Positions 1-26,737 of a stretch of 64,000 bases of DNA are shown piece by piece. Numbering within the stretch: position 1 is the first letter of the stretch; the number at the start of each line of letters is the position of its first letter. Source of the stretch: Balanoglossus misakiensis (lineage: Eukaryota; Animalia; Hemichordata); the NCBI GenBank assembly GCA_040954595.2, contig CM082595.2, forward strand, positions 3,085,943 to 3,149,942, given 5' to 3'. The position numbers and the translations under genes are program-made. The notes under the pieces were generated by a model. It was given only the letters and a program-made list of their open reading frames with translations, searched no databases and was not told where the DNA came from.

Positions 1-492
1 CGCGAAAATAACAGACAATTTCCCCCGCCAATGTGTTCTACCTGCCCTTTGTCGCGGCAAACCTTGTATCACCCGATCTAACCTCCCACACCGCTGGGAA
101 AAATAATTTAATTGTTAACGGGGCATATGACCACGTTTTCCATCGTTGTCACTTATTATTTCGTCCTCTGTGGCGATAATCAAATTTCAGCTTAAACCTA
201 AGATTAATTCTTTCGATAAATTGTCATTTGCCGGATATGCTTGTGCGAGCGAAGCACCCAAAGAGGCAAATTTATAACCATGGTCTGTGCGGTTCACACA
301 TCCATCATTTAAAAAAGTCTGTTTAATGTCCCATGACACGCTGTCGACGGGCATGTAATAGAATACAGCGCATAAATACTGAGGCTGGCGAAATCACAAC
401 GTCATAATACGTACAGGTGATTTATGACAAAGCCAATCTCTCCCCACTTGCGCGAATTGAACTGAAAAATAGATGATTCACTTTTCCCTCAC

Positions 493-591
493 CTCTCTTG
501 TATAAATCCAGTGAAACCCTGTTCTTGCTGACAGACGTCAGGGTGTTGATTCGGAATTGGACAGTCCTGTCCAGAAGGTCTAACGCTCCAT
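493..591 (-). other. Candidate internal exon (probably 5' UTR) of a gene continuing off the left edge
   Basis: Minus-strand acceptor ttttgctcag| before 591 and donor GAGAG|GTGAGG after 493; 99 nt; no recognisable protein motif. Confidence 0.35.
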
Positions 592-3500: not shown

Positions 3501-3788
3501 CATATCCCGCGACTGCGACTTTACTGACATCAGGTAAACACATCCTGAATTCTGCATCAGTATCGCGGTATGAAATAAACTTTGAACTGGGAACGTCGCA
3601 TTTATTTTACGAATGAAAAATCGAACAAATGGCTAATTCACCAAGCACGAAATTCTGCCACTCGCTTTCAATTTAAAAAAAAAATGTCGATTCGAAACAT
3701 TTTTTAATCGTGGTGAATCTGAAAAAAACACCAAGATGTATAGACGTGCAGTTACGTTAGATTCGCGCCACGATGGCTGCCCACTTAC

Positions 3789-4145
3789 GGGGCCCTTCAC
3801 AGAGAGAGAGAGAGCGAGAGAGAGAGAGAGCAACCGCCTTCTGAATTTTCTCTACCGCTTCTGAAATTTTTTCACGTCTCTGTTTTCGCGGCTTTTCTCC
3901 GAAACATGATAGTGTACACTCGATATATACATGCAGACGCCGTGTTTCGAGCTTTGCAATTGATGCACTATACAATGAGAAATTGCTGTGTGTACATAGC
4001 ACTTACCTTGTCTATTGTCAGATCAATAGAGGACCAGCGTGTGTGTGTGTTCAGTGTCTGACGTATATTCCTACAGTGTCGACTAACAGAGAATAGCTGT
4101 GCGGTCTGATCTTGAAGGGTATTCTCTCCAATATGCGCATGCGTA
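3789..4145 (-). promoter_or_regulatory. Probable promoter and alternative non-coding first exons of a leftward-transcribed gene
   Basis: Two consensus minus-strand donors, CAAG|GTAAGT (exon end 4007) and CC|GTAAGT (exon end 3789). NRF1-like TGCGCATGCGTA near 4133-4144, (AG)n tract at 3801-3830, locally CpG-rich. Confidence 0.4.
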
Positions 4146-4287
4146 CATTCTCTCAGTGGTGGCGCATAATCACCACTGCGTGATTTCACCAACTCTACCA
4201 GCCAGGTTTCATGCAAATGATATGTTGATATAGTTACAGTTATATAACATCTAACAATAACATACACGTACATTTTACGTACACACA

Positions 4288-4441
4288 TAGATAGATAGAT
4301 AGATACATAGATAGATACATAGATAGATACATGGATAGATACATAGATACATAGATACATACATACATACATACATACATACATACATACATACATACAT
4401 ACATACATACATACATACATACATACATACATACATACATA
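4288..4441. repeat. Compound (GATA)n/(TACA)n microsatellite
   Basis: Directly visible tetranucleotide array; source of the spurious MYVC ORFs. Confidence 0.97.
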
Positions 4442-6952
4442 CTGTACATGTGTAATAATTGGACATTATTAGATATCAAGGTTATAGGATATATTGGTTA
4501 TTTATTGTCGTCTGTCAAATTTAGAATTCTTTAGTCAGGATGTACGGATATTATTTTCGTTTTCTTCATTCAAGTTGACAGCCACGATATACATGTATCA
4601 GGAAACGCTTGTGTTTTGGCCAAAAGGTACTTCCTGTTTTTACCTTATATATTTCTCGGAGGGCTCATAAATTGGAAAATGCCTATCCACTTAATTAACA
4701 CCAGCGCATTTTTACTGTTCCATGGTAATATCTGTACATTTTCAGAACTTGACTTTGCGTCGATCAATTGTGGCGAAATTGTACTTTTTCGTTTTCTGGG
4801 GCTTTGTGGTGGTTTTATTCTGGGCTGTTCTATCTTGTTATTTCTGTGTGATTATTGCAATCACATAAAAAAATTATCCATCAACCTCTCTCACCGTAGT
4901 CTTTTCATATACACAGTAACATATTATTCTATGTAAACAGATCTGTTCTTTCAATTTCCACCTAAGATTTTCTTTTCCAAGCTAGTACATTGCCACAGTA
5001 GACACCTACCGCTGTTTGGTTGCGTGTATGTTTATATTAATAGTAGTTCTCTTATTAAATATACAGGGAAAAGGTCTTTGTCAATTGACTGATTGAATCA
5101 GTGGGGCGTCGAAAATCTTTGCAAATTTGCCTCGCCATCTTTTGTAGTGGTTTGTCAGCTATTCCTTAACCCCGTTTTCGTGATATCGATCACACGGCCA
5201 GTCGATAAAGTCTGTGTCGGCGGTATTTCATTAGACATTCAACGCCAGGAAAAAAGTTAGACAGATGTATGCGAGCTGTTTCAACCATTATGCTGAACTG
5301 AAAAGAAGAAATTTCGAACATAAATGATGCGGTGGATGTTTTCTGTGTTTTCATCTATCCCGTCACAAGCGTACACCAATTGGAGATGTTAGGAACATAA
5401 TTTCATCATTGTGGAGTCATGGTGAATTGTGGTTCTTCAGTAGCTTGCAATTTGAATCATTCGATATCACCTTCAAGTAAAGTTGTTTGCATTCGAACAC
5501 CGGAAGGGCACCGTGACTGATGTGTTTTTGACTCTGACATTGCAAACGTCATCCTGCCCACCCCTTCAAATTAATAAAATGACCCTTGCCCATGAAAAAC
5601 AGTGCAATGAACTGAAATGTTCGTGGAAAAAGATTTACAGTGCTGAGTATTGGCGAATTCATTAAAGTGTTCATACCTAGTTCGGCAGGAAATATATGTT
5701 AACAATAAACATGATCAGTAAATTCATGCATTAGGCAAATTGTTTTGAATCCTATAAAATCACATAAATGTTATGATAGGCACATCTCTGACTGTGTAGT
5801 TTAATTTATACAAGTGGATTTATAAGAAAAACATTCACGAATATGTGATACACTTTATACAGACGAAGGTGAAATGCTTGATAATTTTTTTATCGTACTG
5901 AGTCACACTGCTGTATAATGAAATCATCAGATTAAGTAGCTCGGTATTAACCGGACCAGCCTTGATAATTCATTACAGTTCTCTGCTATCTGTGCTCTCC
6001 AGGTGATGAATGGCTTTGAAATCGGGTATCGCGCGCGCCCCGGATTCTACAGCGCGTTAATTGATTTCTCGCGCAAGGGAATGGAAAACGATCTCCGGAT
6101 ATCGTTAGCCGTGGTGGCTTTCATTAACTGCTGTCTTGGTCATCTCTGTCTCTGCTCTGCGTGCACCCTGATCATCGAGGTTTTACGACCCGAGTGATTG
6201 CAATCCGAAAATCGGGGTTGCCCTGAGGTGTTTTCATCGATCGGCGTTTGTACAGTAGGTGGAAATTCCACACGCACAAACAATCATGAGAATAAGAACA
6301 TTGTTCATTAATTTTTGCGTTATCCAAATAGGCACACTTAATAAATATTCTGATATCCAACCTTTACACTTGAAGCTGGAGTTTTATATAGTCTTATTCA
6401 CTGAACAAATTAAATAATGGATCATAATATGGATAGTACTTAAGTTTCCTCGGGGTAGTATTAATTAGCATGGGCATGTTTTGCGCAAGCTTTCATGTCT
6501 GTTTCGGCATCAAAGCTTTGCGTATGGATTATGTCATAATTGTGTAATATAATTTATAAATGATGTAGTTACACATTTGCCCGGCGATGGTCTTAATGGA
6601 ATGCAATGTAAGAGAACAGCATTAGAGAAAGGCTACTTTAATATATGGATAAGGTTTCCAGCAATATACTGTTTAATCGGATAACTGGAATGCATTTGAT
6701 CGTGTAATTCTGTGGGATATCGTGATTATATTATGCGGTTACATCTCTTTGCGATGCGTTTCATGCCAAAGGTTATTGGAAAATGAGGTTGTTCGGAGAG
6801 TCTTGTAGGCGAGATTGGGGTCAGGCAACGAATATCTGATTTTGTGTTACATGCAGTCGTAGATTCCTTAGGGATGATGCGAAATAATGCAATTATAGTC
6901 ACGAGGGAACTGGATACTTCATTTAATCTAATCCCCAGATAGTGACATGGGA

Positions 6953-7204
6953 ATAGACCATTTTCTGAACTCCGCGAGATCTCGCGTGGCTAGGCAGTTT
7001 ATATGGGATGACATTCTCAGGAAAACAGGGCAATTAACACATGGCTTATCATGTTTAAGCGTCACAAAAGTTCCAATTTATGTTTACCTCTGCATCTGTT
7101 CTAGTTTCATAGACTTGGCTTGTGCTATTACTTGGCTAGCCACGCGTTGCTACGGTAATTAACCAGGTGTCGCGGGATCTCGCAGTGAGCGGAAAATCAT
7201 CTAA
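6953..7204. mobile_element. Degenerate MITE-like element with imperfect terminal inverted repeats
   Basis: Left end atagaccattttc...cgcgagatctcgcg; right end cgcgggatctcgcag...gaaaatcatctaat. Confidence 0.4.
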
Positions 7205-9854
7205 TCTCGATGTTCTTATTCCGCTGACCCCAGCGCCGACTTCGTGATGCCCCTATACCTTTGAGTGGGCGCTGTGTATTTCGCACCATATAGGGAAAAC
7301 CCCGCGAGCAGGAGATTGTCAGAATTAGAGGATTGTGAAGTAATGGAGAAGTCCTGTGTTCGTAGATCTGCACAGATCTGTGTGTAAAATTAATCAGTGC
7401 GTGGCACAAATACTAATACCCGGCCCTTAAATAACATATAGTCATGCGGCAGTCATTTTTTGACATTTTACGTAATTCACTACTAACTTCAATTTGTTTG
7501 AAACCATTGCCCCGAAATGCTATTCCCCCGGTTGGACAGTATTAAAGCCCCAACAGCTGCAACTTGCGGCATATTTTAATTGACAAAAAAGGCAGTACCC
7601 ACTCATAAACCTGTGACATTTTCAACTTCAGTTGGGAAACGTTTCCTGTGTCTAAGACTTGTCCATGCTTTTTACAAATGTATAAAAACGACGAAGAAAA
7701 TTATGTAATGGAATCCACTTAACAGTTTGTATGATCGTAAGATTAGACCCCGCGCAATAAATTGTGATATCAATATTTTTCAATTGATTTGCCTGTCTTG
7801 TGACAGCTTGTGGATTGCCAAACAAGTGATGAGAACCACAACGCCAATTAAAAGAGCCCGCTGTATATGATTAAATGGTAAAACATAGTCACGACTCGAG
7901 TGTGCCTGTGATCTCTGTCTCAACCTCATTTGCAGGGAATCGATTTTGTATTTCTCCAAATCAGAATAAATGATAGGCAGTATTCATTGCTGTTGTTGTG
8001 AAGCGAGTTCAGCAGCAAGGGTGATCAACATTGTGTTCAGGAAATTGGACAATTTAGATATTTTGCCGTACACACAGTTTGGCGGCCATTTTTAATCTCA
8101 AATATTTATATCGTATTGGTGAATAGCTATTAATTATCAATATTTTAGCATAATTCGAGGAAAGTGCATGGCGACACTGTTTTTTTTTTTTGCTGATAAA
8201 TGTGAAAATAATTTAAAGTAGTTGGGCAAACGTATTCAACCTGTATTCATGTAACACTGTAATTGGGAACCCCTTCTTTCACCCCCCCCCCCTCTTTGTC
8301 CTTTATACTAGGCGTAAATGGATAATTGGATAATCACACACAAACAGTGTTTCTTGCCTCACGTGTACTAAGGGGGTCCTTCCCCTAGATAAATCACAGC
8401 CTTGTAATTTGTTTGATCGGTTTCGCGTCAGTAAATCAACATTAAACGTGACAATCAAGAGAGTAGGGGATCAACCAGATCGCTTCGAGGAGATTGGCCA
8501 AACGACTCGCTGCAGTAATTTACATCAAACAACCCATGCGCATTAAATCGCTAAAAATGATCGTGTTTTGCTCTATAAACGCTTCCGGGCGATTGACAAT
8601 GACTGCAACAACGGAAACATCTCCTTTTAATACAAGTCCTTTGCCATGTTTCGCTCAAACAAGAAACCATTTCCCCATCCGAGTCATTTCCGTAGCACGT
8701 CCTCTCCGACGCGTATCCGAGAAAACACGCTAGTCTCCTGCGCAGCTGAGAGTCCGAATGCAACGATTGATGACATCACCACTGGTGCCAATCGATAACC
8801 ATTACACACACTTTACAAAAGGCAATATCTGCATTCTAAATACTCTATAGTTTCTCATTGTTATGGGTTAGCAAAAATTAACTGTTTTCGATTACATCTG
8901 TACAAATAAACATGTCTTGATTGACATTTTCTCGATTACTTTAGAATAATATGATAATAGATCATAATCAATCGGCGCGGTGAAATACAATTCATTGTTG
9001 GTTATTTTTTTTCGTTTCTGGTGGTGATTAGAACATTATTTTCGAAAGACGAATTCGTATCATTGTAAACAGATTTGACCTATCTGGTTTCGACCAATTT
9101 CACAGACCATCAAATTTAATGGGCGATATTCTTGAAATTGCGACATGTTTTGTCACATCCAAATAAATTGATTGTCTTATACGGGCGTTCCAAACGAGAA
9201 ACACGGCGACGTTTCATCTAATAACCTTTCGGTCTAAATAGTCATGTACGACACAATTCTTGAATTTGTCGATAAAGTTACATTTAGATCATCACCCGGA
9301 AAAACTTGACGCCAGAGAGAAACAATCAGAGGAAGGAACGTTGTAGGTAGTCGATGTTTTATCCCCTGAAGAATTTAAAAATAACAGAAATACCAGCAAG
9401 CTATTGATTTCGTAAGTAATTCGTTATATTATACTATAGTATCCGACTTTGTTAAAAATCTCCATGAGGTTTTGCATCGAACGTGCTTTATTGCGTGGAA
9501 ATTGGCCTTGTTGTCTCTTACGGCAGAGCGCACGGCGGTTGCCAAGGCGACCGGAATCCAGTGCATGAAAAGAAGGTGTTCGATGGTCTTAGGGGAAATT
9601 GATTTCTAATACTTGATGTGAATGTAGAACTCTTAAACACTGGAGTCGTGAATACATGTGGCTCTTGCGTTGCAGTCGAGTATATTTTTGGTGAGTTTTC
9701 TCATCATTTGATTAGTCTATTAGCTGGCAAGTAAGTCTGGTAGACGCCATGAGGACAAAATATTTTCAAACATTGAACACGTACGAAGTTATGTTCATTG
9801 AAAGGCAGACTCTTGGAATGAGAGCAATAGGCAGTAGATATATAGCTGTCTGAG

Positions 9855-10021
9855 TACATACATACATACATACATACATACATACATACATACATACATA
9901 CATACATACATACATACATACATACATACATACATACATACATACATACATACATACATACATACATACATACATACATACATACATACATACATACATA
10001 CATACATACATACATACATAC
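9855..10021. repeat. (TACA)n microsatellite, about 41 units
   Basis: Perfect tetranucleotide array. Confidence 0.98.
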
Positions 10022-12265
10022 TTGAGGGTAAAAGTACGTAAACTTTATAAAGATCATTACAAGATGCTATTATGTGCACTTATACTGTTTCGTAAGGAAG
10101 TCGTTCTCCAGTCATTTTGCATGAACGAACGTGTATTAAGCGAAATATATTGCATACGCATGTCTACAAGTCAGTATACATCTACTTCAAACCGACAGTT
10201 CAGGATTTAACAATGCCTGGCGCAGCTGTGCATCTTGTTTGAGTTAATCTTCTCCTTCGTCTTCGGGCGTCCTCTGGTTGCACTGTACTTTCTATATCAA
10301 AAACAGATGACATACCATCGCCCATGTTTAGCGACTATTACAATTACAGTATGTCCGTGTACCTAAACCGAAATCAGAGATAGATCATATTGCTGTAACT
10401 TTAGCCATTTAATCATCTTGAGTCCTATGGCATGTCGTCTGTACAGGATCTGAGAATATGTTTTACTCCATCTGACATAATTGTAGAAGGCCATTCTCAT
10501 TCTCTGTTACCCGAAACCAAATCGAAGTACATTTCCCTAACAATTGCCGAGAGATAGACATAGTCTTTCAGTGCACCCAACAGCGTAGAACATGAGCTGT
10601 TAAAGTAAGACTGATGTCCTTAGCTGAGACAAAACGACAGATACATTAATCTAGCCATCTTATGGGGTCACTAGAATACTCCTACGGCACATCAAGAATC
10701 AAGATGGCTGATTCTAATTTATGGTAATATCGTGCAAGATACCGTTCTTTCTCACAGCAACCGATAAAACAATGAAATAATAAGAAAATGGTCGAGTTCG
10801 AAAGGTGACTTTATTCAAATTCTAAGTGCAATCGTTGTTGCCGCACTAGATGTTCAAAATTTCATTGTACTTCAAAGCAAATTCTCCTGTAAATATTTAT
10901 TTTGCTGTTTTAAAAATTCATGACTGGCCTTTACTGTCAGTGTCTTGAAACCAGTGAAATCAGAATTGGAATTTCTGTGTGAGATTCAACTCACATGCTC
11001 CAGCACGAGACCTGTGAATTTAGAATTCATAAAGTTCAAAGATGACCAACCATTCCCGCACAAAAAATAGCACAGAGAATGCGTTGCCATGGTGAAGGGA
11101 GCATAACAGGATGGCTATTCAAAACGTGTGGCACAGGGCACCTGGATGACCGCGTCAGCAACAATTGTGCTCGCCAAGAATCAGGAAAATCCCAGGTGTC
11201 GCAGATGAGGTGTGTGTTGGCGACAGAATGATTTTAATTGATTCGCAGAACGGCTTATTGTTCGCGATGAACGTCAGAAACGCGCGTTTTAATGAGGGTT
11301 GACCTTTCAGCGAGGATTTTGACCGGAGAACCGCTGAGGCGCATGTCCGAAATAGAATATATCCCCAGAGTATACGAGGAATTGAACGTGCGAATAAAAA
11401 GATAATTGCCAGATGTTGCAGGCAAGCTACACTGTCATTTTCACAAAATGGTGAATATTCAGATCCGAATATTAGAATTAACAAGCCAGGAATCTCCCTG
11501 CAAACATTGAATAGGAAAACTACCGAAATAAGCCTCGACCATTTTAAATGAACCAAGTAACTTGTGTCGGATACCATCCTGTCCTGACGAATGTACAATA
11601 ACACTAATATGTTCGCATAGATTATTTTGCATATTTTAACTAAAGTATACAAACCTGTGGTATTAACACACTCTCTTCCTGTATTGCAACTTAACACTGC
11701 GTGTTACTAATTAAATTACACAAAAATGTAATGTGAGAACTACGCACACAGACAATTATATAAACTTTTCCATGTACAACGAAGAAGAGTGTCTTGAAAA
11801 GAGTGAGTAGACCATGTCCAGCATGTGACATCCGCTCATAGTTATTCTTACAGCTTTAGGCATATTTGATGTCAGCAGAATCATGATTGCATTTTTTTTG
11901 GAACAGAAATCTTTCCTGGAGATAAACACTTCCAAAGAAAAAGAGAGGTATGGAATCCATATGGTCTAGTGGTTGATGGCCAAGTCAAGGACGGACTCTC
12001 AACTTAAACGCGGGCGATAAACATTTCAATGAATGTACCGAACGTGAAAGTACGTGACCCCTTTTGAAATGTGAATGCTTCGATATCGCATATTACAGGA
12101 TGTAAACAAAAAAACGTGTGACTCAGGTGGCTGCAGAGTCTGTTTACAAGTTCCACGGGTAAACTGTACAGCTACATTCATTTTGAGACTCTGCCTAGCA
12201 ACTGTTGCTCGGCAACCTGTTCTTTGGAGCCCGCGTCAAGCCAAATAATACCATGTTTCCGACCC

Positions 12266-12710
12266 ATTAAAGCCCCAATAGCTGCCATTTTCCCATTATT
12301 TTCATGAGTTTACTTTCAAACTTAGAAGGGTTCATTTAAATGAGCTAACTGATCGGTATACAAAAAACAAGCCTTTTTGAGATATTAAGGTAGAATAAAC
12401 CTCGAAAATCAAAGTCTTTAACTTCCTCATTTTTTGCTCAGGGCAACTTTATTCTCTCTTAAAATTAAGAATCTAATTTGAGTTCACTGCGAAAATAGTT
12501 TCACGACAGCCAAATTATGACAAATTCGAAATTCAAAATGGCTGCCAATCTTTGTGTTTATTTAAAGTAGCGAGCTACATGAGAACAAGATGGAAGACAC
12601 CCGGTTTTCCTCTGTGCTTTCAAGAGACACCACAAGCTAGCTAATAATTGGAAGGTTTGAAGGATTATAATTTTTTTCTGAAAATCTGTCCCCGAGCGAG
12701 TATACTGTAA
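12266..12710. mobile_element. Dispersed non-autonomous DNA transposon fragments with TTAA-type ends
   Basis: TTAAAGCCCCAATAGCTG end also seen at ~7542 and ~23231. The 12266 and 23231 copies share about 100 nt (tttactttcaaa...atttaaatgagct.actgat). A second TTAAGGTAG end lies at ~12385. Confidence 0.55.
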
Positions 12711-13594
12711 GTTCAAGAAAGTGTTCCATGTTTACAGATTACATACTGGGCTTTTAAATGTAACAGGCGGATATATATTTCAGTCACTAAACGGGAAGAG
12801 CAGACCACCCATGGTGAACATTCAAAGGCCTGAATAAAGTGAACCCTGCACCTTGTTTGAACATGCAACGACAAAAGAAGACTTTTGTTGATTTAAGTCT
12901 ATACATTCAAAGGAAATGTTATGCGGATGGTCACACAGAACAGGAAATAACCCGATTGTATAAGAAACCAAAAATATCCAACATGGAAGAAGATAACAAG
13001 AAGGCAGATACAAAACTTGTCTTCATGACAACACACAGTCTGTATATTAAAACAAAAGAAAACAAGAGTAAATTGCTATCTCAGACTGGCTATCTTATAA
13101 ATCAGGGTTTTTGCAGAAGAAGACTTGTTTCCATATTCAAACGCAGATGTTATGAGCTAGTGGATAAGTACATTGTATTTCTCAAGCAATAATCACTGAT
13201 GGTATCAGCGACAGTTGTTTTTATTGTGTGACTGCTTCCTATTTTGACTCTGAGATTGATATATGGTGGGTGCAGCGTGGGGCAGGACATGCTTACTATT
13301 TTCGAAACACCGGACATCCACTTCCTGGTCATTTGGAGGAAGTTCATTATCTTTCTTTCACGAAATGCCATCCACATCACTGAAACTGTTATTATTGTAA
13401 CGTTTCAGGGCTGAAATATCGCTGCTTGACAACCGCACTTCCGGTTTGCCATGAAAGCGGACAACTTCCGCTGTTCACGGTCACCGTGCAGCGACCGTGA
13501 CCTTGGTGCATGAACGAATGTCACCGACCACTGTCAGGCAATCTCTCTTCGCGTACAAGGATTATGCCATTGTGCGCGTGAATTATTAAAGGGA

Positions 13595-13748
13595 CAAAGT
13601 CTCTCTCTAACTGCCCCTTTTCCATCAATTATGTTTGATAGAAGATAGTGAATCAACGTTCGACCACAAACTACTTCCATCCCGTTTATAGGATATGAGA
13701 GTAAAAATCTCACCAAAATGAATAAACAGTAAACACCGATTATTCATG
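13595..13748. repeat. Dispersed repeat; inverted copy at ~15490-15695
   Basis: agtgaatcaacgttcgaccac...gagagtaaaa...ccaaaatgaat...gtaaacaccgattattcat is the reverse complement of sequence at 15500-15600. Confidence 0.8.
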
Positions 13749-14019
13749 TAATTAGTGAACAATAATCGGGAAATCCAGCCGTGTGTGAACTATGGCTTAT
13801 GTTCGAGCACGATGTATAATAGACTTGCCTACTTCAATGAACAGTCCATCACAAGCCTATACGTCCACACGTGACCCAGTGGGAATGACCCCATACCGTG
13901 TATTATGCATGAACAATTCTGTGGGTGGAAAAGTCCCATGGGTCAAATGGTTGATGTGAGAAACACCGGAAGCATGGGGTCACTAGATTATTTGATAACA
14001 CGTGATCTGTAATTCACGT

Positions 14020-15373: not shown

Positions 15374-18300
15374 CTAACGTTCTTGTTCACTGTAGACAAA
15401 AAGACAAAATTTGGAATTATTAGAGAACGCTAATATGCCGATTTTAGCGTAATGACCAGAAATGATTCTATGACCATATTGAGTGAAAAACTCGCCAAAA
15501 TGAATAATCGGTGTTTACCATTCATTCATTTTGGCGAGACTTTTACTCTCATGTCCCACAAACTGGATGGAAGTTGTGTGTGGTCGAACGTTGATTCACT
15601 ACCGGTATATATCCCCATGTAGAATAACATAAGCGGTGTCTTGTATCAAATATAATTAATGGAAAAAGGGCAGCAAGAGAGAGAGACTTTTCCACTGAAA
15701 AATATGATGCTTCTACGCGTATACGAACCTAAGTCTTCTCTTACAAGGGAATATCATATAACTGGCTGAAGTTAATACAGTCTTCGCAGTCACAGGTGGG
15801 GTGATTTTCGCAATACCCAGCCACACAGCAGTACAGTTTACCCTCACTCCTCGGGTCACACCCAGCAGCTGTATTACCATCGGTCATGTAATTGCCACCA
15901 CAACGTCTATCAGCGCGCGTTACAGAGACACCTGTCAGCAATGAAAAATGCACGTGGTGTGACATCTAAATGAAACAGACGACTCATGAAAAAATATGGT
16001 GTAACTTAACTATAAATAAGTCATGCGGGTTGGGAGTACAGCAATCTGATTATGTTCAGATGTAGAGTTAGGCGCTGGTGATAGTTTGGGCTATTCCGCT
16101 CTACCGACTGTGGCTGTTCTGCTCTCTGTCTTGGCGCGGCAGGGGCGTAGGAAGCAATTCATGGTTAAAATTAAAATAATTTAAATACATAATTAAAGTA
16201 ATATATGAATAAATTAAAATGACAAGTCATTACAATATGTGGTTGGTAGAATTGGTAAAACAAGAGAAGTGAAGGGAGTACGGTATAAGGTGAGGCAGGA
16301 AGTCCCCCCCCCCCATCCCGGTTCCTACGCCTATGTTTCATAACAACAACAACAACAACAACTCACTGTAAACTGGTCGGTAATCTTTGCAGTCATCACA
16401 GAAGCACTCATCGGCAGTCTCCCCGCATCCTCCGTTCGCCCCACAACAAGCGTAGATGGTGTCTGTGCGACATTCACTGGGTTGACGATTTGACAGAGGG
16501 TAATTAGGGCCACATTGGTAATCCGACCGCCATTTTGTACTGCCTGCATTTAGGAACATGAGAATTAACACATCGCATCTCATCAACGTGTGTGATCCCT
16601 TGGCATTTTCAGGGAAAGCGTGGAGTATGCTTACTATATTCCAATTATTTGCCAGAAAAACTATTCCCCTTTTATCATTGGTGTAGGATGGAAAAGATAT
16701 TTCCAGTTATTGAGATACTTACATACAGGTAGATCTTGCCACGAACCACTGACACACTTAGAAGACGCTTTACCTCTACTGATGTAATAATGGTCATCGC
16801 ATTTGAAAGTTACAGTTGAACCTATTTGAAAATCGTCTCCTTCTCTTGTGCTATGCGGCACAACGGGTTCAATACACATAGCTGAATAACGGAGAAAGTA
16901 AATATATTTTCTTCTAGTGTATGTATGTACAGTGTTATACAGTGTATTTTTGAAACAAACAAAATTTAAACATTTTTAGGGCAGTGATAGATATTAAATT
17001 CAATGTGAACAATAGCTGGATATGGTTATTCATGAACACATACCTCGATCTCTCACGCCTGTATTGAGATGCAGGGAGAAAAAATATAAAACCGTCATTT
17101 CATAAATACGTGTATCCATAATATGTACATCTTAAACCGACAGTGGTATTTGCAATTAGTCTGATTACAAGTAAGTAAGTAAGAAAACAGTAAACAAACA
17201 ACAAACAAAGTATGCAACTATATAAGCAAGTAAGCAAACACGTTTAGACAACCAAAAAGTCAATCGGTCATGTGTTATTCTTTCGCAGTTGAAATGCCAT
17301 GTGCGTACCCATCCCCATCTGTCCCTCTATAACACTTTTACAATGGGTATCATTTAAGCGTCTCGAAACACTGATAAGAACTCCAATATAATTAGCCCGA
17401 GTAAACTGAGATTGCTATGCTGAAGTCCGATGGTTACGTTCGTTTTTTGATCATTAGAACTGATTAGAGCAGTTCTGTATCAACACACTCTGGATGGTGT
17501 CCTGCTTCGAACATGTCTAAAACACATGTGTACACTGAGAGGGGCAACAGGACATGTTGATACAGAGCTATGTAATCGGTTATAATGATCATTGCAAATG
17601 TAACCAGATGCCAACTCATTCATAAAGTCTTTGATTACTCTGGCTAATTATATTGGAGTTCTTATCAGTGTTTCCAGACGCTTTAAAATGATACCTGTTG
17701 TACGTCAGACTTACATGTTGGAGGATCTGGTCTCCATTTTGTGTGACTACACAGAATAACACCAGCTCCCTCTATAGAGTAACCGGTATTGCACGTGTAG
17801 GTAACAGATGCACCGTTGGTGTATGTTGTTCCCACTTTACTTCCACCATCAATATCTCCAGGGTCGCCGCAGTTAGCTTTGGGTTTGAAGGAAGACATAT
17901 CACCATGTAAAATTAGTCACTGTAATGTGCCTACAACCAGGTATTGCACGACGTAGCTGTAGCGACGTGATACTGTAATACACTTTATTTTCGCGAGCAA
18001 TTAATTTTTCGCCAAATACGCGAGAGCCAAAATAGCGTGAAAATAAAAAGTCGCTTAAATTGTTTTTGAAGATAACGATGCAGTGAATGAAATAAGAGAA
18101 CGCAAAAATTAATACTCGCGAAACAGTGGCCTCTCTCGATATCGCGAAAATTTTGACTCGCGAAAATAAAGTGTTTTACAGTACTTACTTAAGCATTCGT
18201 TATTGGTGGCTTCAAAGGAAGTACCGTCTGGACAGGTTTCAACACAAACGCCTCTACTCCATTTACAGGGACAAATTCTGCGAGAAAGAACAGAAACAAC

Positions 18301-21300
18301 ACTGAGAGTGTATCCCGCCTATTTTAGCTGACCCTGTAATTTGATCAGGTTGTCCGTCCATCGTCTGATGTCTGTCACAACTTGTCTCCTCTGAGACCAA
18401 GGGTCTGATTGCTTTGAAATTTGGTAGGCAGGTTCCTAGGGGTGACCTAAGTAAAGTTTGTTCAAATTGTTTCTGAGCTGCAAAATGTATAGACATATCG
18501 GCTATGGTGTGATGTCAGTTGATCAAGGGTGATCATTATGTAAAGCTGGAGTTTGGGGACTATTTTAGCTGTTCAAAACAAACTGTCACACTCCTCAGCC
18601 AGCATGTGGGTAATTAATTCTCCAAGACGTGAACCAATCCATTTTGTAATTCTCATGCTCACATTGATACAATTTCACTATTCCCTAAAAAAAACATGAA
18701 ATCACTCTGAGGAGTGTGACAAAAAACTTGTGGCAAGCTTGTGGCGGGAAACACATATTGGCTCTGATGCGATGGTTAAGATGAAAACGGTTACTCACAA
18801 GTCTGAACCATGCGACTGAGTAGGGATGTTACAGCTTTGACCGCATTCTGTTACCACGCCCCTGGAGATTGTGATCGTTTTGCATTTGTTGCAAAGTGTC
18901 GGTGAGGGAATGCCATTCTCAGAAATCAGGCAACCTGTATAAGTGGGTAAAATTAATAAAATATATTTAAATTCATATGATATTTAACGCGTCATGGTGG
19001 CAGTTGCGTTTATTGGCGATGCCATGCCACCGACAACTTTATCAAAAATCTTGGCATCAGTCATGCAAGGCATATGTACACTTTTCAACCACATGTAAGA
19101 ATATCCAGCACCACTTACTATAGTCTGCATCACACTCTTCGTGGCATCGGCTTTTGCAGAATATCACCTCATGTTCAGTTGTCACTTCTGTTCCCACGCC
19201 GCAATTTGTACTTGAGATTATCGAGCGAGGGGAGACGTTGACCGTCGTTATGATGACGTTGCTGAAGATGGAGGAAAAAGTTTTGTTGACTTCCGGACGA
19301 CAGTCAGTCGGGAGAACGAACTGAAAGGCGCGTCTAGATCAAACATTTATCCAGTATTGTCAACTATAATAATTATTACTATTCATATAAAAAAAATGCC
19401 TTCTGCCCTTTTTTGTAATAGAAGCACCGGGAGAGAATTTTCTCTCAAAATTGGGGTGGTTTAAAGCAATTTCCTTAACCCCTACCCCTTTCTTTTTTTT
19501 CTCTGTAGGTATCCGTCATTCTTGAATCGTATTGCGACAGGTGTCTTCGTAAGTCATCATTATCAAGTCTTCTGTATACAACTCTAGATGTTGGAAATGG
19601 CGCATGGGCAATGAGTGTGACTCTCACCTTCCGGAACTCCCGAATGCATAGTAAGTAGGAATTATTGGATTGTGGCTATCCTTGTAGGCGGCGTACACCA
19701 CGCGTGTTTCTTCAGAACCCGAGAATTTGCCATATTCAATGAGAATTGCGCTACCGACCATTGACATGCATGCGAAGTAGCCCTGTTGCAGTTTGTCCGA
19801 TCCGAGACCGCGCGAGTTCTTGTTTTCTGTCGCCGTTAGGACGTGGTCGCCCTGAAATGCAGGAATGCAGAATGTGAACTATTTTTGTGCACGTCAAACA
19901 TTTCCATAGGATACTAAGTCGCATTTGCATCTTGAGAATAAACACAAGAAATATTGACATCTGACCATGTAGCATAGACTAGCCAGTCCCCAAAATTTTA
20001 ACTACAGTAAAGCAAAATTATCCCTTATAGTCTTAACCAATCGGAATGAGCGGTGAATGTCACGTGATAATTCTAAGCCAATCGAGAAACATGTAACATA
20101 TAAAGTGGGAAAATTGAACGATGCTAGTGTATACCTTGTAAATTGTCGCCCCTTGTGGGCTGATGTCGATGTAGTACCAGGTCCTTCTGCTCTTTGGTAC
20201 GGCCGCAAAAACAACAAAGATCGAAGCCTGACTTACGGCGCCAAAAAATATACATTTGCCACCGCCTATCGGGGAAAAAGAGGTTTCAAAAGATTCAATA
20301 TTCTGTGCATCGTGTTGTTCGCAAGAAAATTTTATTCTGGCTGCCTAAACATTTTCTTCATAGCATAGTGTAAAATCACATTACCATAATTGTATACATT
20401 TGTATTATAATCTTCAAGTGCCTAATTCTACATGGTTAGAAATTTCAAGTCACTTTCAAGCAACAAACCCAAAATTTTACCAGTTGAGAGTGCACCCCCG
20501 GAATTCTACCTGCTGAGAGTACACCCCCGGGTAGAGCTCCACTTGACAAGACAGCATCATCAAATCTCTCTGCACTTACTTTTCACATCAAAAGTTTGTA
20601 CGTTGGACCATTTCACGTTGCAGGGAACACGAGTGGTTAGCGAAGTCGTCAACTGGCTTTGTCCTGGACGGACCCGTGATTTGGCCGGCCATTCCAACTT
20701 TGCAACGAATCTGTCTGAAATAAGAACAGAATAAATTCAATGTTATGGAGAACTGTCATTTTTCACTGAAAATCTTTCCCCGATGATAAAAATACACGTA
20801 CACAAGAAAAAAAAGTAATGAATCTTACTTTTTAAGTCGTTGAATAATCTCGGCCACAGCCGCTTCGATGCAATGTAGTCGTCTGAATTCATGAGTAGCA
20901 TATTTGTGTTCTCTGAAAAGGTAAGAACCAGTCCGTACACACAGATCTTCTTGTTGGATATTTCGCCACAACCACCGTTGGCCGAGCCATCGGACAGACG
21001 CTCTCTCCCATCGCCTGTTTCCACAAACCAGCGATTGGCGTAGTAGTGAATCTGGTGGAGCAGACGACAAAATCTGATTGATCGCATCACTATCTCAAAA
21101 AGACACGATGCACAAACAAATTCAATGTTGTGTTTGGACCCATCTATGAAATACCTTAATTTCTTATAGGGACACATGTCAGCAATTCTTCGATATCAAA
21201 TGACGCCAGACGCGCTCAGGCGGCAGTTACGTTCGCATTCAAATTTCCAGATGACGGGCAACTTCAACAGAGTGTCCAGACAAAGACAGTGCATACGAAA

Positions 21301-24300
21301 TGCCAAGACGCTGATAAGGCACCATACCTGATACATGTTACGTGTTTGGCGGCTCTAAAGTAAAAACATACTCAGAAAATCTTTTTCTGGATGCCGAAAT
21401 ATTGCTTGCCCGTCATCTGGAAATGACAACGCCGTGGGTCACATGGCTAGATCACGTGATTGATAGTAAAGAATATTGATAATGCCTTAATACATGCTCA
21501 CAAAAAAATCCCAAAAAAGAATATTACTGGGTGTGGTATGTGTTACCTGGGCAACAAAGTCCTTGCTGATTGATTTACCAAGTACGCCCACTTCGATATC
21601 GTCCTCCATTTCAAAGACTATTGTTACGGACTTGCCTTGCATGATGTAGTCCCAGTTGGGTCGTTCCTCCGATCCTCTGGTGGGAGGAACAAATCCGCAG
21701 TTCTCATGGCCAGCTGAGACGGAGAAATCAGACTCCGGAATAACGCCCTGAAAAGAGAGAAATATCCAGGAAATGTGCAAAAATAGACATAGGTGCAGTA
21801 TGTAAGGGGAATTGTGGGTAATTGACCAAACAACACACTAGTACATGTAGTACCAACACTATAATACAATGTACAAGTCAAACTTGCCTATAACAGCCAG
21901 GCAAGGGGCTTTCCTTAACTGGCCTTTATAGACAGGTACCTGTCAATTAATGTGTACATGTAAATTGCGCAGGGACTGTAACAAAGTGGCCCCTGTATAG
22001 AGGTGGCCACTAACACAGGTTTGAAATTAACTGTATAGACACACAAGTTTGCAAAAAAAAGCAGAAACTTTGTCTTGATGATTAATGAAAAGGCATAAGG
22101 CATGTTTTGTTTCTCGCAGACAACTAGAAAATTCAAAAAAGGAGAAAGTGAAACTACCTCGGACAAGTAGACGCTTGTAGCCTTCTCTAGTGCCGCGCGC
22201 CTCTGTGCAATCTCGGCCATGAAGACGTCTTTGCTCTTGTAACTACAGTAAACTTTCTTGGAGACATCTTCACCGTTCTCCGTTCTCTTAGAATAGTAGT
22301 AAGTCTTCTCATCGCTCCCTGTACCCTCCTTGTGTAGCAAGTCTGCCGGCAGGCTATTGCAGTCCCAACTGGTGCCATCATTGGGGAAAAGATCGCTGGG
22401 TTGGAAAAAGAGCAGATCGGTGATCGGCGCAATCCTGAACTTGAACGGTTTCGGGTATTTCGGTATTGAATCCAACCAGTTGACCAAATCTGAAAGAAAA
22501 AGCGATTTGATAAATTATTGTACAGTTGTATTTACAGACAACGGGAGCATAGGCTTATTCATGACAATTTGATTTAATTCCGTTAATATGATTTCATGGC
22601 AAGATATCATATCAGTCGGTCGCAGAAACTCTTAAAACACATGCATCTGTTATGGTGCGTCCGGGTTAAAGGTATACCGGTATGGTCACCTATGGAAAAT
22701 TAGCATGGCAAATTGAGATCTAGCCAATCACAGATTTTCAGTGGGTGGCACACGCGAATAAAAGAGCACCACCATATGTTCTTCAGAACGCTCAAATACG
22801 CCTTTTCAGCCATATATGGGCGTATGTAAATTGGAGGTGACTGTATACCTTTAATGCCTACACCCCCACTAAATGTAACAGTAAGGTAAAAGCATTGTCA
22901 TCTCATTACCTGTTCTGGTGGTGGGGGTGCCGCCGTCGGATACAAGAGCCGCGATTTCAGCATTCCCGCCGAGGGCCGTGATAGTGGTCGATCCGTAGTT
23001 GGTCTGTTTTGTCTTGGAATTACCACCGGACGTGGACATTTTGGCATGGAAGCTGGCGAAGAAGGCGTCATAGTCAACCTTCGCTTCCACGGCGAATTCT
23101 TCAACCGTTGTAAAGAAGGACGCCATGGAGGTCTTGCGCAGCGTCAGTCTGCCACCAAACTCGGCAGACTTGATGTAGTGGGTGCCCCATCGCAGGATGA
23201 AATCCTCTACAGAACAATCATATCGTTATTTTAAAGCCCCAATAACTGTCATTTTTTGCATTATTTATGTTATTTTACTTTCAAAGTAGAATGGTCAATT
23301 TAAATGAGCTGACTGATGGATATACAAAAACATAATATAAAACTCTTGTTGTGGCCTTGCATTTAAATATGAACAATTTAACACCTGTTTAGTCAGCCAC
23401 TCATTGCAAGAGTATACAACTATCATGGTTTGTTCCTTGTGATCTTCAAACATGAATAACTGTGTCTGATACTTAAAAGGCATTTCCTTTTTGCAAATAG
23501 TGTCACGTGACTTACGGTACTTGAAAGCAGCGTCGGAGGTGACGTAGGACTTCGGAAGTTCCATGAATTCCTTGACAAAGTTCACTGAGAGGTCACTGGC
23601 CTTCACTTCATCTTGAAAAATCTCGTATCTGTTGATCACACAAGCAAATGTTATCATCGAATAGGGTTGTTCCGATATCAAAGGGTTTGATATACAATTC
23701 AAGCTTTGAAACTATGGGTGCATAAATTGCCTTGTATTGTATAATTGTATTGTATTGTATTGTACTGTATGCAAGCGCCAGTGTGTCATTCTCTATATTG
23801 ACAAACCGACAGAACAAGCCAACCTGGTTCAATTCAACATAGGCATGTATAGAATCATTTGCATACCTGATGACGTCAATATTGTATTGTATTGTATTGT
23901 ATCATTTGCATACCTGATGACGTCAATATCCATTTGAGACATGAACATCTGTGTGTTGCTTCTGGTGGAGGTGCCATACGCGGAGGAGACTCCTGCACTG
24001 AAGAAGAAGTAACTGCCAGAGACGCCAGCTTCCGTCTGGAGATGGCTGCTGTATTCCTCGCGGCTTGAGAATGTGAACTGGCTCGACTTGGTCTCATAGA
24101 TACCGTGAACATTCATTGTGTCGGGCACATCTTCATCGTGGTACCTTCAGTCAAGAGTTTTAACAGTATACTTATCATGAGTACTTAGGGAGCAGTCATT
24201 ATTTACAGCCGGGGTGGGGAATTTCCCTAGAAACTCGAGTACCTCCCTACAACCGAACATGTGGAATCTGAGTAACCCTCTTCCAGTTTTCTATTTTTAA

Positions 24301-26287
24301 TTGACCAGAGCTCACCCTTATCAGATTCCTCCACGCCCCCAGCCAAAAATTATGACAGCTCCCTTATCAAGTGTGAACTGGGGAAAATGGTAGTTCTGAC
24401 AATTTGAAATCAGTTCAAGGAGAATTGAAAATGTTTTTAAAAATGGCCAAAAAAAGGAAAATACTTTGTTTGCTGTTAGCACATTTATTTTTAAAAGTTA
24501 AAAGACCAAACACTTCTTACGTTGACAATGCAGCACAGTTCCTCTGTATTATACTCATTTTCCGACTCTCAGGACTGTATTCACCACGCCCATCGAAACC
24601 AACTCCGATAAAACCAGCGCCCTCCATCATATCCTAAGAGAAATGTGACACACCAACAGGTAAAAAAAACCTCATTGCAATAAGTATACAATTTTCATTT
24701 CAAGAGATAGAAATCTTCTACCAATTATAAATGTACGTCTAATGACAAGTCTCAGATACCTCACCTTACACGTACTGGCAGACACTAGCCTGGTTTCGTA
24801 ACAAGGATCCCCTAGCTTGTAGCCACTGCCATAGCAACCGTTCCACATGACAGAACCTATATTGATATTAAATATTTTATTACACTGAATCTAAAAAAAC
24901 GTTCGTTGTGCTTTTATCATAACATTAGAGTCAGATTATGGTATGAATCAGAATGGCATCCTGTACTTGTAGGGCTTCTTATGGGTTGAAAATCAAGTGC
25001 TACGTACTGCCAAAGTGGTACTAAAATGTGTACGTAATATGCTTTGAAATGTGTAAGTTTGGGAAGAATTAGAGTTTATTGCCGAATCGCATGACATCTT
25101 AATATCCGAATAATAAAAATGACAACCCCGAGTGAACACAGATAAAGCACAAAAAAGGGTCGAAATGTTGGTGTATCCCCCCCCCCACCGATTCTTACTT
25201 TGAGCGGCAAAGGTTAAATTTGTCCTCCCCAACATAGTTGAGTTAATATGCCAATAAAGTTTGTCTTTATTCTCTTACCCATTCCATTGGGATAATTAAA
25301 AGCTGCTGGTTCTGTCGATGATTCTTCTGGTTTGTCGGCTTCTGTGTGTGCTGAAATGTGCCAGGCTGGGGGCGCTAGTAGGTCTTCTGTCATAAAAGTG
25401 TTCTGTGGTTGGACGTCAACTGTGGCCTGAAAAATCATTAAATGCAGATGTACAATCAATCAATCAACCAACCAACCAATCAATCAATGAGTCTGCCAGT
25501 CACTCACTCAGTCAGTTAGTTAGTCAGTCAGTCGGTCGGTCGACTGATCTATCGATAGACTGAATTCAATCAATCAATCAACCCATCAATCATGTACATG
25601 TACACAAGCATTGCCAAATTCGTAGCTTACCCCATTCCTTATGTAATCATTGGCTCTGTCGCCGGCTTCACCGATCTTCTCGAAAAGTTTCTCGGCCGTC
25701 TTCTCGGCGAGTTTGCCTCCAATTTCGATGGCTTTCTCGGCCACTATTGGTGGCACTGCCCTCTTGCGTTTTGGATGAGATTCCTCCGCGGCCGCTCGTT
25801 CGAAGTTCTCTCTCAGATGCTCCGGAATACCTAATCATGGAAATACAATTTTGTTTTCATATCTGTGGAGTCGAGGCTAAAATACGGCTGTTCAGTTTCT
25901 GGCTGTGTTATACTTCCCAGTGATTCTTGAGCATTGCAGTTGGCTATGTTTCAGTCGTTTAATTCTGTGAAGCAATTTCAGTTTAATTCTGTCATATCTT
26001 CCCAGTATTCTGCTCACCACATGTATTACAGCTTGTATATGCGCAGTAACTTTTGATAACGTTGGCAAGGGAATTCTAGTCCGGGCTTGAATTCAGTGTA
26101 CTGCTATAATAGTAATTGTCAAGATAAAACTCTTTTTATGTAGATTTATACAGAAGGAGAGATTTTGAACTGGATTTTCGCACAAATCACAATACGTACC
26201 AACATTTTTGTTTGCTATTGGTACTGAGTGTACGTAAACTGTGATGGTTAGAGAAAGCAGGGCAACAAACGTCCCCTGGTATACCAT
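15374..26287 (-). CDS. Secreted multidomain MACPF (perforin-like) protein with furin-like repeats, 2 sushi/CCP and 2 hevein-like Cys-rich domains, about 1203 aa
   Basis: 23 GT-AG coding exons with all phases consistent: 26287-26200, 25830-25631, 25426-25279, 24856-24765, 24633-24521, 24144-23914, 23628-23516, 23206-22910, 22489-22158, 21747-21547, 21051-20829, 20714-20580, 20265-20135, 19851-19628, 19261-19119, 18934-18799, 18277-18189, 17876-17715, 17058-17044, 16881-16723, 16543-16367, 15931-15745, 15389-15374 (sum 3612 nt). Signal peptide MVYQGTFVALLSLTITVYVHS. MACPF signature WGTHYIKSAEFGG (23189-23151) plus GVGFDGRG, ALGG and WLDSIPKYPKPFKFRIAPITDLL motifs. Confidence 0.9.
15490..15695. 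repeat. Dispersed repeat in the last intron of the MACPF gene; inverted relative to 13595-13748
   Basis: Direct sequence comparison within the window. Confidence 0.75.
17044..17058 (-). CDS. 15-nt microexon of the MACPF gene, (C)VRDR(A)
   Basis: ttttttctccctgcatctcaatacag|GCGTGAGAGATCGAG|gtatgt; phase 1-1; completes the T|GC Cys codon that closes sushi domain 1. Confidence 0.75.
17355..17685. mobile_element. Fold-back MITE with ~50-bp TIRs and TTAA-like ends
   Basis: ttaagcgtctcgaaacactgataagaactccaatataattagcc matches the reverse complement of ggctaattatattggagttcttatcagtgtttccagacgctttaa; internal arms are also inverted. Confidence 0.85.
17971..18183. mobile_element. MITE with TA-flanked TIRs
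   Basis: TACTGTAATACACTTTATTTTCGCGAG ... CTCGCGAAAATAAAGTGTTTTACAGTA. Confidence 0.88.
18321..18480. mobile_element. Fragment of a Helentron/HINE-like interspersed repeat
   Basis: ttttagct... start, gtccgtcc tract, then cttgtctcctctgagacc...gattgctttgaaatttggta, a layout typical of this repeat class in marine invertebrates (recalled, not searched). Confidence 0.45.
21871..22035. mobile_element. Tc1/pogo-like MITE (CAGTCAAACCTG-end family), degenerate
   Basis: tacaagtcaaacttgcctataacagcc...ggccactaacacaggtttga; related to the copies at 51474-51661 and 52440-52668. Confidence 0.6.
22666..22854. mobile_element. MITE with TTAA target duplication (Kolobok/piggyBac-type ends)
   Basis: TTAA-AGGTATAC...GTCACCT and AGGTGACTGTATACCT-TTAA. 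Confidence 0.65.
24186..24366. mobile_element. MITE with ~18-bp TIRs in a MACPF intron
   Basis: tagggagcagtcattattt ... aaattatgacagctccctta. Confidence 0.7.
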
Positions 26288-26737
26288 TGTCTGAAAATGA
26301 AAAAAAAGAACAAAACTCTGTTTTTTTATGTTTTTAGACGAAATCGTAAGTTTGGTATGTATGAAATGAAATTACTTGAACGAATTTCACAACCAGTCGT
26401 GGAAGCCCTGTTGGTCTTACTAAGAAATGCGGAAAGTAAAAGCAATTTCCTTTTCCAGTGAACGTGTCAACGTTTGCTATTAAAACTCTGTTTCGTTGTT
26501 TGGAATTCTGACTCAAGAATATTCAACCATGTCCATACATCATTGTTTCAAGCTCGTCCAGAAGCTATCTCTTATACATACTTGATCATCGAGGAATTTG
26601 TTAATTTTTAAGTGGAACAAAAATATTTTGATATGATTTAATGATTCAGAAAGGTTGGAAATTAAATGCATCTGATATACTATCCAAGTATCAAAGATCT
26701 GCAAGTTTCAAAAGTTACTGTTTGTTTAGAAACCTAC

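Follow-up and report, generated by a model that had tools for sequence, protein, structure and literature searches.

An intact MACPF gene of Balanoglossus misakiensis with a hevein-like tail, and the tail-varying family to which it belongs

A 64,000-nucleotide (nt) stretch of the hemichordate Balanoglossus misakiensis (GenBank assembly GCA_040954595.2, contig CM082595.2, positions 3,085,943 to 3,149,942; hereafter the window, position 1 being its first letter) carries on its minus strand an intact, intron-rich gene, whose exon chain we predicted from the genomic sequence and from relatives. The predicted product joins a MACPF domain to a conserved middle region, a furin-like region, two Sushi modules and two hevein-like repeats. 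With a probability of about 0.6, it would be a secreted, tail-targeted defence pore-former from a family that shuffles its tails, its pore-forming activity being predicted; its target is probably something other than chitin. The core is common to at least 90 database proteins, and the family is apparently undescribed: no paper on the core or the family was found in the open-licence literature, supplements and subscription papers being outside that scope.

The gene and its predicted product

The model has 22 exons (26287..15741), with an AG acceptor and a GT donor at each junction, and the spliced frame is open over 1199 amino acids (aa) with zero internal stops. An alternative 3' end gives 1203 aa in a frame that is likewise open, which is the length an earlier note on this DNA had proposed; it uses the donor at 15744 and a last exon of 16 nt (15389-15374). 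The two ends are candidate versions of one predicted gene model. All motifs quoted in that note were located at their place on the minus strand.

For comparison, six uncharacterised proteins of Glandiceps talaboti were available, with cores 40-50% identical over ~960 aa: LOC144439764 (P0043), LOC144440064 (P0046), LOC144440089 (P0049), LOC144439719 (P0047), LOC144439760 (P0237) and LOC144448211 (P0137). Exons 2-17, 21 and 22 are supported by tblastn against relatives (exon 15 weakly, E 0.009) and exon 18 by alignment to P0137. Exon 1 was placed by sequence logic and by the whole-protein alignment of P0043, which starts at residue 1, and exon 19 by sequence logic alone (splice sites, a Cys codon). 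Support for a single chain is comparative: P0046 aligns over aa 9-1194 and P0049 over aa 9-1133, from the MACPF domain into the repeats, and P0137 aligns over aa 536-1019, bridging the junction from furin-like to Sushi. Of the 124 columns conserved at >=90% in 63 relatives, 111 are kept by the model; four others are masked split codons and nine differ. Tail exons 18-21 are all of phase 1-1 with lengths that are multiples of three, and intron 17, 312 nt long, is phase-matched with a GTAAGT donor.

Features of the gene (window coordinates, strand, feature; basis):
26200..26287, minus: exon 1, ATG at 26287 and predicted signal peptide (aa 1 to ~21); hydrophobic N-terminus by eye, P0043 alignment from residue 1
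25631..25830, minus: exon 2, pro-region with basic site KRKR (aa 50-53, 25771-25760) and amphipathic helix (aa 54-96); hydrophobic moment, RVKR in P0043
25279..25426, minus: exon 3, linker (aa 97-145); tblastn to P0043, P0046, P0047 and P0049
22158..24856, minus: exons 4-9, MACPF domain (aa ~147-538); Pfam on exon 8, a relative's model, conserved columns
23964..24032, minus: predicted membrane-inserting segment 1 (aa 252-274, EAGVSG...); helices 252-280 of the P0049 model, family consensus kept
23151..23189, minus: MACPF signature WGTHYIKSAEFGG (aa 335-347); G, T, H, S, F, G and G invariant in 63 relatives
23010..23087, minus: predicted membrane-inserting segment 2 (aa 369-394, EAKVDY...); helix 373-389 and flexible 392-406 of the P0049 model
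19200..21747, minus: exons 10-15, conserved middle region (aa 539 to ~860), predicted ConA/galectin-like beta-sandwich and insert; P0043 model, no Pfam family
18189..19200, minus: exons 15-17, furin-like Cys-rich stalk (aa 863-965, 13 Cys); homology to the Furin-like region of the relative P0001
17715..17876, minus: exon 18, Sushi/CCP 1, phase 1-1, AAG acceptor; Pfam Sushi E 3.6e-9, collinear with P0137
17044..17058, minus: exon 19, inferred 15-nt micro-exon with the remainder of Sushi 1's last Cys codon; basis limited to the splice sites and that codon
16723..16881, minus: exon 20, Sushi/CCP 2, phase 1-1; Pfam Sushi E 2.6e-7
16367..16543, minus: exon 21, hevein-like repeat 1, 8 Cys, 0/4 chitin-site residues; PDB 4z8i E 2.6e-10, 43 bits with the family repeat profile
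15741..15931, minus: exon 22, hevein-like repeat 2, 8 Cys, 1/4 chitin-site residues, in-frame stop 15743-15741; 22 bits with the family repeat profile, 4z8i E 0.14
15374..15389, minus: possible last exon, 16 nt with stop (1203-aa form); strong pyrimidine tract, AG at 15390, open frame

Pfam, run on 18 of the 22 single exons with a reporting limit of E<=1, recognised MACPF (PF01823) in exon 8 alone (31.3 bits, cut-off 21.5) and weakly in exon 9, and Sushi (PF00084) in exons 18 and 20 (37.3 and 31.4 bits, cut-off 20.7). Both Sushi modules have four Cys, the fourth being made across the splice junction. No single exon matched Furin-like at that limit, and the label comes from the homologous region of P0001 (Furin-like, E 1.1e-6), aligned to the window protein. 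Chitin_bind_1 (PF00187) had no match at E<=1 in exons 21 and 22; this profile is passed by the relatives P0046, P0069 and P0117.

The MACPF signature pattern is Y/W-G-T/S-H-F/Y-x6-G-G, to which aa 335-347 conform. The two Ser/Thr/Gly-rich segments singled out in the earlier note correspond to helical clusters between the central strands in the P0049 model, and the alternation score of segment 2 lies at the 99th percentile. Right after the basic site, the helix at aa 54-96 has the highest helical hydrophobic moment of the protein and is conserved in many relatives; it could be an auto-inhibitory or membrane-anchoring element. The general description given in the earlier note, a probably secreted protein (the signal peptide is predicted by eye) with an intact MACPF signature, a furin-like region, two CCP modules and further recognition-type modules at its C-terminus, is borne out, for the furin-like region by way of P0001, and goes well past what chance would give. 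To this the present analysis adds the ~330-aa conserved middle region (aa 539-860), the loss of chitin-site residues and the membership in a family with varying tails.

Some details of the model involved a choice. For exon 15, acceptors at 19333 and 19320 were weighed by eye, and 19261 was preferred on phase and pyrimidine tract. The last ~30 nt of exon 6 and its donor recur in intron 6 (23930-23853, minus strand), 47 nt downstream; this second donor was dropped because of the frame shift. A strong splice acceptor lies 3 nt upstream of the ATG (26291-26310, minus strand), thus an untranslated upstream exon is probable.

A constant core and variable tails

A search with exon 9 returned a single protein, P0001 (one hit among 426 candidates), which has MACPF and Furin-like regions followed by a pentraxin/LamG tail and comes from a 3.9-kb contig; the window's own protein did not come up in this search. 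The core of P0001 retrieved 82 proteins among 7,987 candidates scored, and the closest relative retrieved 35 among 7,994, 8 of them new. Members with a name belong to anthozoans (stony and soft corals, sea anemones), Glandiceps talaboti, lancelets (four species or hybrids), the annelid Owenia, the flatworm Macrostomum and a chiton. Names of vertebrates, arthropods or nematodes did not come up, although such word-based searches cannot show absence.

The closest relative is P0043, with 50% identity over aa 1-964. In a tree of 68 cores, the window protein groups with four Glandiceps proteins (support 100), its own row forming a long branch; the tree was computed with FastTree only, 15 of the 82 proteins were omitted for partial coverage and tail labels were assigned by hand from the Pfam output. 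Five Glandiceps members have records of equal size, which suggests that they are clustered. Over 63 relatives, columns conserved at >=90% number 73 in the MACPF domain, 35 in the middle region and 13 in the furin-like region, and nil in the tail.

Tails were determined from Pfam on 70 proteins scanned whole and from precomputed annotations of the 82-protein search. Their modules are pentraxin/LamG, F5/8, C-type lectin, fibrinogen C, SRCR, SUEL, tectonin, kringle, FN2, uromodulin D8C, LCCL and Chitin_bind_1, often mounted on stalks of EGF, ephrin-receptor-like, HYR or Sushi domains; several members have no recognised tail. Eight pairs from the tree were selected for differing tails and three of them were profiled. 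Cores are 93% identical between P0020 (pentraxin) and P0021 (fibrinogen), 88% between P0046 (five hevein-like repeats) and P0047 (C-type lectin), and 89% between P0078 (tectonin) and P0084 (C-type lectin and kringle), and in all three pairs identity is ~20% or less right after the core. Exons of phase 1-1 with lengths divisible by three are the pattern expected of exon shuffling. Tail exchange likely occurred by exon shuffling at the phase-1 intron that follows the furin-like region. P0001/P0005, P0080 and P0243 have frames without interruption that take up almost the whole of short contigs, and are likely transcripts; therefore the pentraxin, ephrin-receptor-like and SUEL tails at least are supported.

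These comparisons bear on the remark in the earlier note that the architecture was not recognised from any characterised protein. The protein is not a one-off, since its core recurs across the family and a MACPF domain with a hevein-like tail is present also in acorn-worm and lancelet gene models. What makes it interesting is the interchangeable tail at the family level, and not chitin. In P0237, the same core precedes a single hevein-like repeat plus three LCCL domains. P0096 and P0113 carry an SRCR domain ahead of the MACPF domain, not behind it. MAC/perforin domains are reported as enriched among the dispensable genes of two lancelets, in an account that leaves the MACPF subfamily unnamed (PMC12373286).

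Predicted folds and the hevein-like repeats

Fold predictions were made on the relatives P0049 (41% identical to the window protein) and P0043. The whole-chain model of P0049 has a predicted local distance difference test score (pLDDT) of 65 and a predicted template-modelling score of 0.48, with pLDDT <50 in the repeats and in the first 149 residues. Its residues ~185-550 match the pre-pore of bacterial Mpf2Ba1 (8b6v) with Z 21.5 (root-mean-square deviation, rmsd, 3.4; 281 aligned), GNIP1Aa with Z 21.2, Plu-MACPF with Z 21.1 and MPEG-1 with Z 19.0. Foldseek agrees, and bacterial MACPF proteins were also the best matches in a sequence-profile search (E 3e-9 and 5e-7). The bent four-stranded sheet and the two helical clusters (TMH1, TMH2) are seen in the P0049 model, and the window protein keeps the conserved columns. 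As judged from these models, the nearest solved structures are demonstrated or presumed pore-formers.

Folded alone, the middle region of P0043 (pLDDT 84.9) gives a beta-sandwich of the ConA/galectin class, built from a first strand and aa ~711-858, with a beta-rich insert of ~140 aa (aa ~570-695) after the first strand. It matches CBM66 (Z 14.6, rmsd 2.5, 135 aligned) and further the thrombospondin C-terminal domain (Z 13.6), a legume lectin (12.5), PRYSPRY (12.4) and galectin-8 (11.7). These listed matches cover 124-153 of 329 residues, which is the sandwich, and leave the insert uncovered, though it is modelled confidently. Scans of exons and of relatives assigned the middle region to no Pfam family; its Atlas match to Methyltransf_FA (PF12248), scored 0.90, shared only 135 of 256 features, and none of 30 scanned proteins matched that family at E<=1. 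The modelled ConA-like fold is compatible with sugar or protein binding and demonstrates neither.

Both C-terminal repeats have 8 Cys in hevein-like spacing. Repeat 1 finds the N-terminal domain of the amphioxus protein BbtPGRP3 (PDB 4z8i), which a six-repeat relative finds too, and hevein-like ancestry, as proposed in the earlier note, is supported by these alignments. Since the repeats of P0049 are modelled at pLDDT <50, the hevein fold is taken from sequence homology. Repeat 2 by itself matches 4z8i with E 0.14, and its match to the family repeat profile has E 7e-9 in a one-protein search. The BbtPGRP3 domain is described as having a hevein-like crystal structure and binding chitin via S51, W53, W55 and H62, the W53A/W55A change abolishing binding (PMC4610682). 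At these four positions repeat 1 has G, N, G and E, and the sole remnant of the site in repeat 2 is a Tyr in place of W55, where the alignment has a gap, so that the chitin targeting proposed in the earlier note is doubtful. By comparison, of 24 family repeats chosen by pattern, 22 keep S51 and all 24 keep H62, 18 have Trp at W55 (20 an aromatic residue) and one has an aromatic residue at W53. Relatives' repeats score 65-90 bits with the family repeat profile, against 43 and 22 for those of the window protein, which are also acidic (9 and 8 D/E vs 4 and 5 K/R). The repeat type occurs in 11 of the 236 proteins collected, in Glandiceps and Branchiostoma. Canonical chitin binding was likely lost in the window copy, while paralogues such as P0046 would be fair candidates for it. 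The window repeats, which keep the disulfide frame, would either bind a ligand different from chitin or be decaying.

Proposed function, alternatives and the rest of the window

If the protein is a tail-targeted pore-former, it would be secreted and its pro-region likely removed at KRKR, which would expose its most amphipathic helix. A surface ligand would be captured by the tail, for which the furin-like and Sushi region would serve as a stalk, and the constant beta-sandwich, placed like the membrane-binding domain of other MACPF/CDC proteins, would dock on membrane or glycans. Next, a ring of monomers would form, and refolding of the two helical clusters would produce a beta-barrel pore, as it does in other members of the MACPF superfamily. 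In the window copy, the constant sandwich would likely be the main docking module. Pore formation that requires a lectin is described for snail perivitellin-2 (PV2; 10.1101/2019.12.23.880021).

Several points weigh against this reading. The fold evidence consists of models of P0049 and P0043, at pLDDT 65 for the whole P0049 chain and without modelled repeats. Astrotactin-2 likewise matches the MACPF model (Z 11.6), and SPRY domains and thrombospondin lie within 2.2 Z of CBM66, so the sandwich fold is not diagnostic of function. With an alternation score at the 96-97th percentile, segment 1 does not stand above core strands. Only 25 of 71 scorable relatives, some of whose models are N-terminally incomplete, have an [RK]x[RK]R site; P0043 has RVKR where the window protein has KRKR, which lacks the P4 Arg of the furin consensus. 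The tails come mostly from automated gene models, prone to fusing neighbours, and no family member with a tested function was found in the literature. Finally, MACPF proteins can be non-lytic or developmental (PMC11090067).

The protein could also be a non-lytic extracellular protein acting in adhesion, matrix, signalling or development with the MACPF domain as a scaffold, comparable to astrotactin, some sea-anemone MACs and apextrin. Three Nematostella MACs are described with developmental roles (PMC11090067), and EGF, Sushi, HYR, ephrin-receptor-like, FN2 and D8C tails are also matrix modules. However, neither predicted membrane-inserting segment is shortened, both are conserved, and repeated lineage-specific expansion with tail exchange fits a host-enemy conflict better than a conserved developmental role; we regard this alternative, which is not exclusive of every other reading considered here, as rather unlikely. 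We find it improbable that binding of the repeats to chitin or GlcNAc polymers directs the pore to fungi, parasites or predators. The 8 Cys in each repeat, the homology of repeat 1 to a proven chitin-binding domain, the aromatic residue at the W55 position of repeat 2 and the nearest Atlas clusters, which are Chitin_bind_1 (0.82-0.83, a lead only), speak for it, and what relatives keep of the site may make it true of paralogues like P0046; in the window protein, the missing site residues (three of four in repeat 2, in a gapped alignment), the low profile scores, the acidic repeats and the lack of a Chitin_bind_1 match at E<=1 argue otherwise.

A deterrent or offensive toxin, deployed in mucus, eggs or glands against animal cells in the manner of snail PV2 or stonefish toxin, has a similarly low probability in our view. 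Its nearest solved relatives are insecticidal Mpf proteins, but the likeness is limited to the MACPF domain. SPRY folds match the middle domain, and stonustoxin combines a MACPF-like domain with SPRY; the tail repertoire, however, resembles microbial pattern-recognition modules. PV2 is described as pairing a MACPF domain with a lectin in egg defence (10.1101/2019.12.23.880021). A false fusion, in which the MACPF gene stops after the furin-like exon and exons 18-22 come from another transcript, is very improbable. The junctions are known from genomic sequence and comparison alone, P0043 ends directly after the furin-like region, the acceptor of exon 18 is AAG, exon 19 is an inferred 15-nt exon, and the exact succession of two Sushi modules and two hevein-like repeats is in none of the relatives examined. 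Nevertheless, intron 17 is short and phase-matched and has a GTAAGT donor, with no start or signal exon seen inside; the model of P0137 runs continuously from furin-like to Sushi, and those of P0046 and P0049 from MACPF to repeats.

The tail-targeted pore-former that we prefer can be compared with known systems. P0046 and P0049 end in the window protein's repeat type and P0137 continues from furin-like to Sushi; no Glandiceps relative, however, has two Sushi modules and two repeats, and their repeats keep most chitin-site residues. GNIP1Aa (6fbm), Mpf2Ba1 (8b6v) and Plu-MACPF (2qp2) are the best sequence-profile and fold matches for the MACPF domain, but the match stops at its end (model ~185-550), with no signal for their C-terminal domains, and they are without the furin-like stalk or tail. 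Stonustoxin is a heterodimer with a MACPF-like domain and a PRYSPRY sandwich and no variable tail. It has a pore domain followed by a ConA-class sandwich, as predicted for the window protein, and 4wvm is a weak Foldseek match; profile searches of the PDB gave no sequence match to it. BbtPGRP3 is described as an immune effector for which the same 8-Cys repeat family serves as a shuffled module for targeting; the effector is an amidase and not a pore, and its chitin-site residues are absent or mostly absent in the window repeats. PV2 is described as a MACPF pore-former delivered by a lectin, as proposed here, but as a pair of chains joined by a disulfide, one part being an IMAD domain and another a tachylectin (10.1101/2019.12.23.880021), whereas the window protein has one open frame, apparently another middle domain and a tail that varies across its family.

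Complement C6 and C7 are described as secreted MACPF proteins with two CCP modules in their C-terminal part (PMC11312191). In the window protein the CCPs lie ~430 aa past the MACPF domain, behind the beta-sandwich and furin-like region, and C6/C7 rely on a separate recognition cascade. The C6-C9 hallmarks (TSP1 and LDLa ahead of the MACPF domain; FIMAC in C6/C7) were not found: no Cys precedes residue 153, P0043 scanned whole gave MACPF only, and the tail exons had no FIMAC match. As to the MPEG1/perforin-2 hallmarks, a P2 domain and a C-terminal transmembrane anchor, MPEG-1 aligns over model residues 184-544 only, the middle region is ConA-like and no hydrophobic C-terminal segment was seen by eye. 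The ApeC domain of apextrin had no match on exons or whole relatives, and the region after the MACPF domain models as a ConA-like sandwich. Anthozoan MAC/TX-60A toxins are described as a signal peptide with a single MACPF domain, with or without EGF (PMC11090067, PMC1896004); the window protein has ~660 residues more. On these comparisons it does not qualify as a C6-C9, MPEG1, apextrin, TX-60A-type or PV2-type protein. The stated scope of Surm et al. is proteins that have a signal peptide plus just one MACPF domain (PMC11090067), and the types given by Miller et al. are MPEG, TX-60A, apextrin and spondin-like (PMC1896004).

By analogy, the protein may be likened to a one-chain PV2, or to a fusion of a lectin-pathway receptor with a terminal component of complement. 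For invertebrates without C6-C9, the question arises of how pattern recognition becomes lysis; in the animal MACPF groups described so far (MPEG1, apextrin, TX-60A type, C6-like, PV2), the accessory domain is fixed for each group. More tentatively, and at somewhat less than even odds, the family may be an ancient one-chain 'recognise-and-puncture' arsenal of marine invertebrates, in which a core of MACPF and lectin-fold domains bears at least a dozen exchangeable recognition modules, with recent swaps. If so, the arsenal would predate the cnidarian-bilaterian split, one gene would do the work of the lectin pathway and the membrane attack complex, and the window copy would be a hevein-like tail caught changing specificity. 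Close paralogues with differing tails offer a natural panel for whether target choice follows the tail, and the MACPF repertoire gains two domains, one ConA-like and unannotated, the other inserted and unmatched. The result for the single gene is more modest: an intact member whose hevein-like repeats are without the known chitin site.

In the rest of the window, tblastn of 8 relatives found no second family gene, and Pfam gave no match at cut-off in 72 stop-to-stop open reading frames (ORFs) of >=78 aa outside the gene (1-14000, 27000-64000), a scan that short exons would escape. A weak match to a Cas12f1-like TNB zinc ribbon at 27501-27764 on the plus strand (E 7.5e-5, 23.2 bits, below the cut-off of 26.3) may be chance or a decayed transposon fragment. 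Minisatellite arrays occupy 55459-56670, 59735-60843 and 61093-62165, with periods of 85/112, 46/137 and 87 nt respectively, and account for the longest spurious ORFs of the window; the first and last arrays have a common core motif.

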